Assembly: GCF_003334255.1 (NCBI RefSeq)
Contig: NZ_QOWU01000079.1
DNA: 14,611 nucleotides
Source of the DNA: Escherichia coli
GTDB lineage: Bacteria; Pseudomonadota; Gammaproteobacteria; Enterobacterales; Enterobacteriaceae
Strand: one strand, 5' to 3'
Shown piece after piece: positions 5,219 through 5,492 of this stretch. Below the pieces are notes generated by a model. That model did not search any database. It was given only the letters and a program-made list of their open reading frames with translations, and was not told where the DNA came from. The position numbers and the translations under genes were made by a program. Position 1 is the stretch's first letter; each line of letters starts with the position of its first letter.

Positions 5219-5287
5219 TTCTGCCATTCCGGGACGTTACACTGTTCAGGCACCTTATAAAGCGGGTGTCGGGATTGGCGTCCTGGA

Positions 5288-5484
5288 ATTGCATACGGCG
5301 ACAATTGGCGCGTTAGCGTCTTTTTTGTTGCTACAACTCAGCTATACCCAAATTATGGTGGGCTGGGTGGGGGCACCGAAAGGTGCGCCGGTTTCCGTAT
5401 GCGCCGGTTACGCCAACCCTGCTCAGTTCACCACCAGCGAAATTGGCGTTTCCGGTGGTGGAAGTTATCCATTGCATACGGAGG
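5288..5484 (+). ncRNA. candidate cis/trans antisense-RNA control region (C4 / P4-CI / IsrK-like) upstream of rha
   Basis: Loop element CCGTATGC (5395-5402) is complementary to GCATACGG at 5291-5298 and at 5474-5481. The second copy overlaps the rha SD GGAGG (5480-5484). Element CGCCAA (5411-5416) is complementary to TTGGCG at 5305-5310 and 5443-5448. Supporting hairpins are GCACC-GAAA-GGTGC (5373-5386), CCGG/CCGG (5387-5408) and CACCACC/GGTGGTG (5429-5460). The RNA ends are not determined. Confidence 0.5.
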
Positions 5485-5492
5485 CTGCCATC

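Follow-up and report, generated by a model that had tools for sequence, protein, structure and literature searches.

An IsrK-C4 RNA cassette upstream of the Escherichia coli prophage gene rha and its probable role in gating Rha expression

The rha locus

The window, that is, the whole 14,611-nt (14.6-kb) stretch of Escherichia coli DNA analysed here, carries the gene rha in the early operon of a lambdoid prophage. The 181-aa product matches Pfam Phage_pRha (E 5e-31), and TIGR02681 also matches. The cII-like gene ymfL lies 5' of the region and co-oriented, overlapping early genes follow 3' of rha; the early genes around the region are intact and have normal codon periodicity. A long frame-0 reading frame, the ATG of which overlaps the ymfL stop (ATGA), spans a putative promoter, an IsrK-like RNA, a C4-type RNA and their target sites, and then runs into rha in frame. 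This reading frame shares part of its length with a DUF4222 gene that is read in a different frame. The principal features are the following.

4890-6038, + strand: long frame-0 ORF of 382 aa, equivalent of P4 eta (ORF listing, translation)
5215-5243, + strand: putative sigma-70 cassette promoter (conservation, alignment with the P1 promoter)
5250-5326, + strand: IsrK-like short RNA, equivalent of P4 seqA (Rfam isrK RF01394, 58.9 bits)
5351-5438, + strand: C4/CI-type antisense RNA (Rfam C4 RF01695, 80.7 bits)
5355-5357, + strand: AUG at the base of the C4 stem, equal to the first AUG of Gifsy-1 orf45 (homology)
5429-5460, + strand: alternative hairpin CACCACC/GGUGGUG with target a2 displayed in its loop (covariation)
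5493-6038, + strand: cargo gene rha, 181 aa (Phage_pRha, TIGR02681, codon periodicity)

An IsrK-like RNA and a C4-type RNA

A covariance-model search, proposed in the original prediction as a check on a P1-C4/P4-CI/IsrK-style arrangement, found both Rfam families on the + strand, isrK first and then C4 as expected, each with a score that exceeds its gathering threshold. The isrK match covers model positions 1-77 of 77 (58.9 bits; gathering score 50), and the C4 match is likewise full-length (positions 1-87 of 87; 80.7 bits; gathering score 45). By fold prediction the IsrK-like RNA consists of hairpin 1 (5250-5269), hairpin 2 (5270-5285) and an intrinsic terminator, which a scan located at 5307-5320 plus a T-run; a hairpin with U-run is kept at the IsrK 3' end in every cassette type. 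The Rfam model c4-a1b1 (RF03163) reached 20.4 bits at 5237-5289, below its gathering score of 46.7, and this segment is better described by isrK; Gifsy-1 (48.1) and P1 (51.0) pass c4-a1b1.

Upstream, the putative promoter is composed of a -35 element TTGATT (5215-5220), a spacer of 17 nt and a -10 element TACACT (5238-5243), with a start near 5250. It was not called in a consensus promoter scan because it matches the consensus at only 8 of 12 positions. The case for it, putative as it is, comes from conservation and from alignment to the mapped promoter of P1: TTGA in the -35 and TA...T in the -10 element are invariant or nearly so among 14 diverse cassettes, and the window -10 aligns, via the c4-a1b1 model, with the annotated P1c4/P51b -10 of P1.

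The C4 region has a closing stem (5356-5372/5417-5433), a GNRA hairpin (5373-5386), a hairpin 2 (5387-5408) and a CCA at 5434-5436, and its Rfam fold is also its fold of minimum free energy (MFE; -45 kcal/mol, z -3.9). Among the 14 cassettes, pairing is complete (100%) in the closing stem and hairpin 1 and reaches 98.8% in hairpin 2, with 12 compensatory pairs in the C4 stems changed on both sides; the intramolecular folds overall are 97.2% paired and hold 14 compensatory pairs (14 sequences). The CCA 3' of the stem is invariant in the aligned cassettes. C4 RNAs are excised by RNase P from a longer transcript to a length of ~77 nt and serve as trans-acting immunity factors, and processed, trans-acting RNAs are known from both P1 and P4. 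Mapped from the annotated ends of P1 c4, the mature RNA of the window is predicted at ~5357-5435. Mature c4 of P1 starts at the G of the AUG corresponding to 5355-5357, and the predicted RNase P cut would fall within this codon; from it, 46 codons run in frame to the rha ATG with no stop between.

A 9-nt direct repeat, GCGCCGGTT at 5385-5393 and 5401-5409, arises as a side effect of the CCGG arms of hairpin 2 being palindromic. The CACCACC/GGUGGUG hairpin competes with the C4 closing stem for the stem's 3' strand and is itself conserved by covariation: 99% of cells pair, both sides have changed in three pairs, and slid registers do not hold up.

Pairing elements and their covariation

Two antisense elements in the C4 RNA each have one target upstream, inside the IsrK-like RNA, and one downstream, before rha.

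5275-5281, + strand: upstream target a1, UUGGCGU, in the loop of IsrK hairpin 2; complements the C4 junction element
5291-5298, + strand: upstream target b1, GCAUACGG; complements the C4 loop element
5394-5402, + strand: loop antisense element (P1 b'), UCCGUAUGC, in the loop of C4 hairpin 2
5410-5416, + strand: junction antisense element (P1 a'), ACGCCAA, at the C4 3' junction
5443-5449, + strand: downstream target a2, UUGGCGU; complements the C4 junction element
5474-5482, + strand: downstream target b2, GCAUACGGA; complements the C4 loop element and overlaps the rha Shine-Dalgarno sequence

All pairings are intact in the window, downstream over 9/9 and 7/7 positions and upstream over 8/8 and 7/7. 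Target b2 overlaps the rha Shine-Dalgarno GGAGG (5480-5484), which stands 8 nt before the ATG at 5493, and across all cassette types b2 always ends in GGA. The original prediction had described these sequences from the letters alone, and every coordinate and sequence in it proved exact when checked against the window: CCGTATGC at 5395-5402 inside the hairpin 5387-5408, an 11-nt repeat ATTGCATACGG at 5288-5298 and 5471-5481, GCATACGGAGG at 5474-5484 ahead of the rha ATG (5493), CGCCAA at 5411-5416, the GNRA hairpin at 5373-5386 and CACCACC/GGTGGTG at 5429-5460. This holds also for AATTGGCG at 5303-5310 and 5441-5448; the role of upstream target that had been given to the copy at 5303-5310 does not hold. 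That copy was rejected as a1, being part of the terminator stem and present in one cassette type only, and the conserved upstream junction target is a third TTGGCGT copy at 5275-5281 that had been missed.

The 14.6-kb window holds three copies of GCATACGG or its complement, against an expected 0.39, and each of them falls inside 5291-5481; three occurrences anywhere in the window were reached by 2 of 200 shuffles. TTGGCGT alone is not rare (4 matches in the window versus 2.7 expected), and its significance derives from comparative covariation rather than from rarity. In all cassette types a1 is placed ~16 nt 5' of the GCATACGG site. Loop complements of at least 7 nt, both upstream and downstream at fixed offsets, were present in 60 of 103 unique viral-contig contexts, as against 2/294 in a cross-type control.

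Formal covariation counts were made on a MAFFT alignment of 14 diverse cassette sequences; several distant types, for which simple sequence anchors mis-set a1 or a2, were left out of these counts. Within the 14 sequences, 96.8% of cells are paired in the downstream intermolecular pairs and 13 of the 16 pairs have changed on both sides; for the upstream pairs (a1:a' and b1:b') the figures are 97.1% and 13 of 15. Covariation scores of 0.64 downstream and 0.69 upstream compare with at most 0.12 for slid registers. Broken down by target, a1 pairs in 99% of cells; double changes, one on each side of the pair, affect 6 of 7 pairs in a1, 7 of 8 in b1 and 7 of 9 in b2. At least 11 distinct loop sequences were found, each with matching upstream and downstream sites, and the junction variants TCTCAC and ATGCTAA are accompanied by matching changes in both targets. 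The compensatory change for which the original prediction had proposed a test is seen strongly in the intermolecular pairs across relatives.

Folding of the full-length RNA gives an MFE structure (-117.7 kcal/mol, z -5.2) in which the loop is paired with b2 and the Shine-Dalgarno sequence, the junction with a2, and 13 bp are formed over the Shine-Dalgarno sequence. The duplex energy of C4 with the leader was better than in all 300 shuffles; that of IsrK with C4 exceeded the shuffles only modestly, 15 of 300 equalling or beating it, and cofolding added little. Energies computed for whole RNAs, as duplexes or as cofolds, are dominated by long spurious duplexes; they are uninformative and were rejected as support.

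The long reading frame and the Ash label

Frame 0 is singled out among relatives. Counted upstream from the C4 AUG, it stays open for 180-580 nt in 64 of 66 measurable contexts, the other frames for at most 160 nt in nearly all contexts, and the 138-nt leader has 0, 5 and 7 distinct stop positions for frames 0, 1 and 2. Nearly all of 69 relatives have a long ORF that starts upstream of the promoter and is in frame with the cargo gene. The openness is not accompanied by protein-like evolution: variable sites at the three codon positions number 50/55/54 in frame 0 of the cassette, which is no third-position bias, compared to 62/54/131 in rha and 51/32/121 in ymfL. Third-position bias without covariation had been named in the original prediction as a pattern that would speak against the RNA switch; what we find is the flat distribution together with covariation.

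The translation of 5238-5525 nonetheless matches Pfam PF10554 (Phage_ASH) with 67 bits against a gathering score of 26 (E 2.4e-18), nearly at full length (profile positions 1-105 of 107). In P4, PF10554 matches the old ash/cI ORF that lies over the CI RNA. P4 epsilon, stated in two papers to be the origin of the family, was ruled out, epsilon being PF25738. Conservation of the Ash stretch is RNA-driven, and PF10554 traces to the obsolete P4 ash/cI ORF. An earlier suggestion that Ash is an RNA element read as protein is borne out to this extent but is only half right, in that stop codons are specifically excluded from the frame. Frame 0 is selectively kept open and probably also translated, since it is kept open and runs into rha in the manner of P4 eta and kil; it would probably be translated for the act of translation, not for the product.

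A further reading, to which we assign somewhat less than an even chance, is dual use of the sequence: selection would act on its translation as well as on its RNA function, and the frame would be open only for early-operon ribosomes that override the RNA block. The override may involve an Eta-like-Rha fusion or simple melting of the structures. As RNase P is predicted to cut within the leader AUG, any one transcript may then either yield mature C4 or have its leader translated, but not both. By the same dual-use reading, Ash and many 'Ash' or 'Icd-like' database proteins may be translations conserved for the sake of the RNA alone, and the use of PF10554 as a marker of P4 epsilon may have been an error.

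Comparison with known cassettes

The IsrK-C4 module as such is already known, with P1, P4 and Gifsy-1 as precedents and both RNAs as Rfam families. The name 'IsrK-C4' was given to the system of P4, P1, P7, N15 and lambdoid prophages (PMC3632133). Judged by sequence, the layout in the window equates to seqA-CI-seqC of P4 and to a1b1-c4-a2b2 of P1, and rha takes the position held by kil in P4, icd in P1 and anrP in Gifsy-1.

In P4, the Rfam isrK and C4 models both match in the same order as in the window, and the loop and junction elements have their matching sites in seqA and seqC. The first gene after the site overlapping the Shine-Dalgarno sequence, kil (65 aa), forms the 3' end of eta (197-199 aa) and is read in the same frame; from the P4 sequence we reproduced eta of 199/198/197 aa and kil of 65 aa. 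The eta start lies upstream of the internal promoter with its ATG over the preceding stop, in a ACGCATGA context that is common to position 4890 of the window, and the equivalent stretch, once translated, is matched by Pfam Ash in P4 as well as in the window. Forti et al. in 1999 reportedly found that translation of eta renders transcripts from the upstream promoter insensitive to the immunity RNA. The two differ in cargo (Kil in P4, the 181-aa Rha in the window), in host element (a satellite versus the early operon of a lambdoid prophage), in the pairing sequences (P4 loop CCUGUGAA, junction UCUCAC) and in the spacer from IsrK to C4, which in the window is ~80 nt shorter than in P4 itself and ~40 nt shorter than in P4-like contig types.

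The immI region of P1/P7 has the order in common: a1 in a hairpin loop, b1, a terminator-like hairpin, C4, a2, and b2 over the Shine-Dalgarno sequence, with an 8-nt spacer to the ATG; the spacing of b2 and icd in P1 is the same as that of b2 and rha in the window. P1 C4 scores 68.8 bits, and isrK stays below threshold in P1 (35.1). The cargo in P1 is icd-ant, and P1 lacks the long leader ORF: its AUG frame stops after 14 codons, whereas the window frame stays open.

Gifsy-1 isrK-orf45-anrP is matched by isrK, c4-a1b1 and C4 models alike, and orf45 starts with the AUG of the C4 stem base, which is conserved at 5355 in the window. The compensatory mutants G28-C162 and G31-C159 were validated in Gifsy-1 (Hershko-Shalev et al. 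2016, PMC4825925). G28 and G31 map onto a1 of the window and C159 and C162 onto the junction a', which is exactly the a1:a' pairing. A species of ~80 nt is processed from orf45 (PMC4825925), and this STnc1160 corresponds to C4. The Gifsy-1 locus follows the Q gene and the window locus cII, and loop specificities differ. The orf45 stop overlaps the anrP start (ATGA), and the Gifsy-1 switch acts on the start of the leader ORF and relies on stop-start coupling; the window leader, by contrast, has no stop and is fused in frame to rha, and details of the switch may therefore differ. AnrP was considered as a Rha homologue and rejected, as it is an ORF6N protein unrelated to Rha.

In the APSE phage, isrK and C4 stand side by side upstream of a gene for a BRO-N DNA-binding regulator (PMC7313666; LR794151). 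The record marks antisense regions; cargo and pairing sequences differ from the window. In LR794151 the name a' stands for the loop and b' for the junction, opposite to the usage of the P1 record.

Discussion

Based on the collective evidence, the region upstream of rha is, with high probability, an IsrK-C4 immunity RNA cassette that gates the expression of Rha. The analysis bases this on family membership, complementarity, three-way covariation, a conserved putative promoter and a conserved terminator, the absence of codon periodicity and the exclusion of stops from one frame. The idea of a P1-C4/P4-CI/IsrK-style switch over the rha ribosome-binding site, put forward in the original prediction, is upheld by the Rfam matches, the covariation and the shared layout.

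The proposed mechanism would start with transcription from the internal promoter (~5215-5243) near 5250. Most transcripts would end at the intrinsic terminator (5307-5326), giving an IsrK-like RNA of ~77 nt that carries a1 and b1. Read-through transcripts would include the C4-type RNA (5351-5438), the tRNA-like three-helix fold and conserved 3' CCA of which suggest probable excision by RNase P to ~79 nt. Acting in cis or in trans, C4 would pair through its loop (5394-5402) with b2 (5474-5482) and through its junction (5410-5416) with a2 (5443-5449); this pairing covers the rha GGAGG, and Rha is therefore proposed not to be made. By the precedents of P1 and P4, the untranslated mRNA may then be terminated. 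The IsrK-like RNA could serve as a decoy offering both targets: when abundant, it would tie up or remodel the C4 element, such that rha translation is released. IsrK of Gifsy-1 provides the precedent, acting in trans with a release of downstream translation that was shown (PMC4825925). In the same system, however, constitutive STnc1160 did not counteract IsrK (PMC4825925), which leaves a simple sponge model unproven. On transcripts from the upstream early promoter, frame-0 ribosomes would cross the RNA elements and bypass the block, as in P4 eta.

The stretch might instead be ordinary coding sequence, the N-terminal Ash domain of a longer Rha, with conservation due to protein function. Longer Rha proteins are indeed annotated (383 aa in mEp460, 296 aa by PGAP), 'ash family protein' entries are many, one frame is open throughout with stops excluded in relatives, and the Phage_ASH match is nearly full-length (E 2.4e-18). 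Yet the cassette lacks the codon periodicity of its flanking genes, it has a conserved putative promoter and an intrinsic terminator inside, amino acids change wherever the pairing elements change, and PF10554 takes its name from the ash/cI ORF of P4, which covers the CI RNA, and not from epsilon. In more distant cassettes every frame is interrupted by stops, yet the RNA features persist. The coding explanation is largely refuted and, in our estimate, very improbable. Even less credit is due to the idea of a decayed, non-functional remnant: many E. coli prophages are defective, but here all pairings are intact, both RNAs exceed their Rfam thresholds, and the early genes around the cassette are undamaged and show normal codon periodicity.

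Other explanations accept the RNA structures and differ in what these would do. The C4 loop could sequester the rha Shine-Dalgarno sequence on the same molecule only, with no processed trans RNA and no immunity, consistent with an MFE fold of 5250-5510 that forms the loop:b2/Shine-Dalgarno and junction:a2 pairings intramolecularly and with alternative cis structures described in the Gifsy-1 work (PMC4825925). Against such a cis-only leader stand the many specificity types on a near-constant scaffold, matched exactly in three places, which is the pattern expected where cross-talk between co-resident elements is selected against; co-resident cassettes do occur, in up to 5 places per E. coli genome. 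The conserved tRNA-like fold and CCA, the processed ~80-nt species of Gifsy-1 (PMC4825925) and the trans action of Gifsy-1 IsrK point the same way, and we regard restriction to cis as improbable. Premature transcription termination ahead of rha and the downstream replication genes, as in P4, could also be the main output of the cassette. P4 has the same seqA-CI-seqC order and a nested long ORF, its immunity has been described as RNA-dependent termination (PMC4825925), and co-oriented, overlapping early genes lie 3' of rha. In every type, however, b2 overlaps the Shine-Dalgarno sequence, always ending in GGA, and this argues for ribosome exclusion as the primary effect with termination secondary, as in P1; termination as the main output appears less likely than not.

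Lastly, the IsrK-C4 reading has importance for annotation. Database records for the stretch vary between extended Rha, an 'immunity region' CDS and 'ash family protein', and such protein-centred, inconsistent annotation conceals an RNA switch by which a prophage regulator is probably controlled. That PF10554 owes its conservation to the IsrK and C4 RNAs matters for domain-based surveys of Rha proteins and of P4-like satellites. Many loop specificities on one scaffold, combined with shuffled cargo genes, constitute a comparative set for RNA-based heteroimmunity. The 1.3-kb segment 4800-6100 of the window has a partial match in 3022 of 5426 complete E. coli genomes, and in 566 of those 3022 at least 80% of its length is matched.

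Two known RNAs upstream of rha

The Rfam search called for by the original prediction, which had proposed an antisense RNA switch of the P1-C4, P4-CI or IsrK kind over rha, was run on the whole window at gathering thresholds (C4, 45 bits; isrK, 50 bits) and matched both families; the related c4-a1b1 model scored under its threshold in the window.

5250-5326, + strand: isrK (RF01394), 58.9 bits against a threshold of 50
5307-5326: intrinsic terminator closing IsrK
5351-5438, + strand: C4 antisense RNA (RF01695), 80.7 bits against a threshold of 45

All predicted motifs exist at their coordinates in the window sequence. 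Folded alone, C4 reaches -45 kcal/mol (z -3.9) in the structure of the Rfam model, with the 8-mer of the original prediction inside the hairpin 2 loop (b', 5394-5402) and CGCCAA within the unpaired 3' junction (a', 5410-5416). Names follow the P1 record, where a1 and b1 denote the upstream targets of junction and loop, and a2 and b2 the downstream ones. Three matches to GCATACGG or its complement exist in the 14.6-kb window, each within 5291-5481, against an expectation of 0.39. TTGGCGT is not rare by count in the window, and its significance must therefore rest on comparison with relatives. The predicted complementarity of CGCCAA and TTGGCG stood, and the upstream copy assigned to 5303-5310 had to be abandoned: it is found in one cassette type only and belongs to the terminator stem. 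A third TTGGCGT, previously overlooked, lies inside a hairpin loop at 5275-5281. The downstream loop target b2 overlaps the Shine-Dalgarno (SD) sequence of rha, and RNA folding favours a cis fold covering it. The downstream junction target a2 is exposed in the loop of a CACCACC/GGUGGUG hairpin that competes with the C4 closing stem. The putative promoter hexamers and the terminator of the cassette are conserved.

Comparative evidence for the pairing scheme

Scanning viral contigs by pattern for the hairpin 2 arms gave 120 loci. In 60 of 103 unique contexts, a reverse complement of the resident loop (at least 7 nt) occurs on both sides at fixed offsets. Loop sequences among these cassettes number at least 11, and the downstream complement ends in GGA without exception; as a cross-type control, a loop set against the flanks of another type pairs in 2/294. 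The junction element is mostly CGCCAA, and its variants TCTCAC and ATGCTAA are each matched by changes in both targets. Upstream, the junction target that is conserved precedes the loop target by ~16 nt and corresponds to 5275-5281 in the window.

Pairing and covariation in a 14-sequence alignment (values for slid registers in brackets)
Loop:b2 and junction:a2: 96.8% of cells paired; both-side changes in 13/16 pairs; covariation 0.64 (<=0.12)
a1:a' and b1:b': 97.1% of cells paired; both-side changes in 13/15 pairs; covariation 0.69 (<=0.12)
C4 and IsrK internal helices: 97.2% of cells paired; 14 pairs changed on both sides; covariation 0.41 (<=0.10)
CACCACC/GGUGGUG hairpin: 99% of cells paired; 3 pairs changed on both sides; covariation 0.30 (<=0.16)

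The viral-contig locus L043 (IMGVR_UViG_3300042309_002792, 101-395) carries a GCCGGTTTCC...CCGGTT hairpin four times at 90-nt spacing, with flanking loop complements absent from these tandem hairpins; it is not an IsrK-C4 cassette and is unexplained.

Characterised relatives and proposed mechanism

The window layout recurs in Gifsy-1 (isrK 79.3 bits, c4-a1b1 48.1, C4 69.0, with anrP next), in P4 (isrK 60.8 bits; C4 74.9 bits, this match being the CI RNA) and in P1 (c4-a1b1 51.0 bits, C4 68.8, isrK 35.1). The P1 record reads P51b promoter, a1, b1, c4, a2, b2, icd, as does the window, and SD-to-ATG spacing is 8 nt in both. The published Gifsy-1 compensatory pairs G28-C162 and G31-C159 (PMC4825925) fall on UUGGCG and CGCCAA, thus on a1:a', when the Gifsy-1 start is set at locus position 1492; the same paper equates IsrK with P4 seqA. 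For P4, P1, P7, N15 and some lambdoid prophages, Barquist et al. 2013 already used the name IsrK-C4 immunity system (PMC3632133), and the APSE-7 record annotates both RNAs adjoining a BRO-N gene (PMC7313666). Given these layouts, that naming and this annotation, the architecture is already known. The window element, then, is of a known kind: it belongs to both RNA families, its pairing scheme covaries and its target overlaps the SD. The switch interpretation is thereby supported, and the value of the window cassette lies chiefly in annotation and in the origin of PF10554.

By analogy with P1, P4 and Gifsy-1, a ~79-nt RNA would be excised at about 5357-5435, as placed by alignment with the ends annotated for P1 c4; its 5' cut would fall within the AUG at 5355-5357. 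Translation of rha would be repressed in cis and in trans, the IsrK-like RNA could relieve repression as a decoy, and ribosomes on the long ORF of early-operon transcripts may bypass the block.

In phage P1 (3231-3312), a hairpin and U-run lie between b1 and c4, and the isrK match is sub-threshold; P1 too may make a short IsrK-like transcript. The a'/b' letters are inconsistent across public annotation: APSE-7 (LR794151, 1238-1261) has the C4 loop as a' and the junction as b', the P1 reference record the opposite.

Ash family: RNA or protein

Translated, 5238-5525 matches Pfam Phage_ASH nearly end to end (E 2.4e-18), and such ORFs stand in databases as 'ash family protein' or 'Icd-like'. Across 70 related loci, variable sites in the cassette are flat by codon position in frame 0 (50/55/54), whereas third-position bias is strong in ymfL (51/32/121), rha (62/54/131) and DUF4222 in its own frame (7/8/19). 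Conservation of the cassette is thus RNA-driven, the outcome of a comparison of codon periodicity with covariation that the original prediction had suggested. The proposal that the Ash label is an RNA read as protein holds to that extent and is over-simple, since one frame is kept stop-free. Stops are excluded from exactly one frame: within the 138-nt leader they occupy 0/5/7 distinct positions in frames 0/1/2, the pattern upstream is the same, and length differences are multiples of three. Upstream of the C4 AUG, frame 0 stays open over 180-580 nt in 64/66 measurable contexts, and in 3 further contexts it is still open at the contig end. The open frame usually begins at an ATG overlapping the stop of the preceding gene and runs in frame into the cargo; more distant cassettes lack it and keep the RNA features.

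The window's 382-aa ORF (4890-6038), which ends in rha, has its counterpart in P4. There, ORFs of 199, 198 and 197 aa begin at three successive ATGs, and an SD-linked ATG opens an in-frame 65-aa ORF, lengths that agree with those of eta and kil. When eta is translated from the upstream promoter, immunity-dependent termination is reportedly prevented, a result ascribed to Forti et al. 1999. The DUF4222 gene (5039-5218, Pfam E 1e-13) is wholly contained in the long frame-0 ORF, so this 180-nt stretch is open in two frames, and protein-like evolution is confined to that of DUF4222.

In P4 (stretch 7888-8584), Phage_ASH (PF10554) matches a 137-codon ORF over the CI RNA, which X02534 annotates as 'put. 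ash gene' and X51522 as 'cI gene product'. PF10554 is treated as P4 Ash/epsilon in two papers (PMC8628076, PMC8951638), and a survey of P4-like satellites took it as the epsilon profile (PMC8628076). Epsilon is PF25738 and is not matched by PF10554, so the survey marker detects the RNA cassette adjoining epsilon.

Cargo genes and prophage setting

The cassette is a portable module. Cargo behind it includes Rha, a short protein resembling Rha, one of 77 aa, Kil-like proteins of 64-65 aa, ORF6N (AnrP), Bro-N and Icd, with one loop type found before differing cargo and one cargo behind differing loop types. AnrP was considered as a relative of the window Rha and rejected, the two proteins being unrelated. 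First cargo codons (MAT[VI]P...) stay alike where the remaining cargo differs (viral-contig loci L083-L118 and others), and the phage Ayreon match stops at window 5517; both suggest a recombination junction just within the cargo gene.

The setting is the early operon of a lambdoid E. coli prophage, with cro-like, cII-like ymfL, DUF4222, cassette, rha, more early genes (Dam and RusA among them) and Q on the + strand and an S24 repressor gene on the opposite one. E. coli chromosomes match the window at 98% identity; region 4800-6100 has at least a partial match in 3022/5426 complete E. coli genomes (566 cover >=80%), at up to 5 places per genome. Rfam STnc100 (RF02076, 143 bits) matches 12336-12541 (+), ~550 nt 3' of the Q antiterminator gene (11372-11779, PF06530), and may belong to the leader of the late operon.
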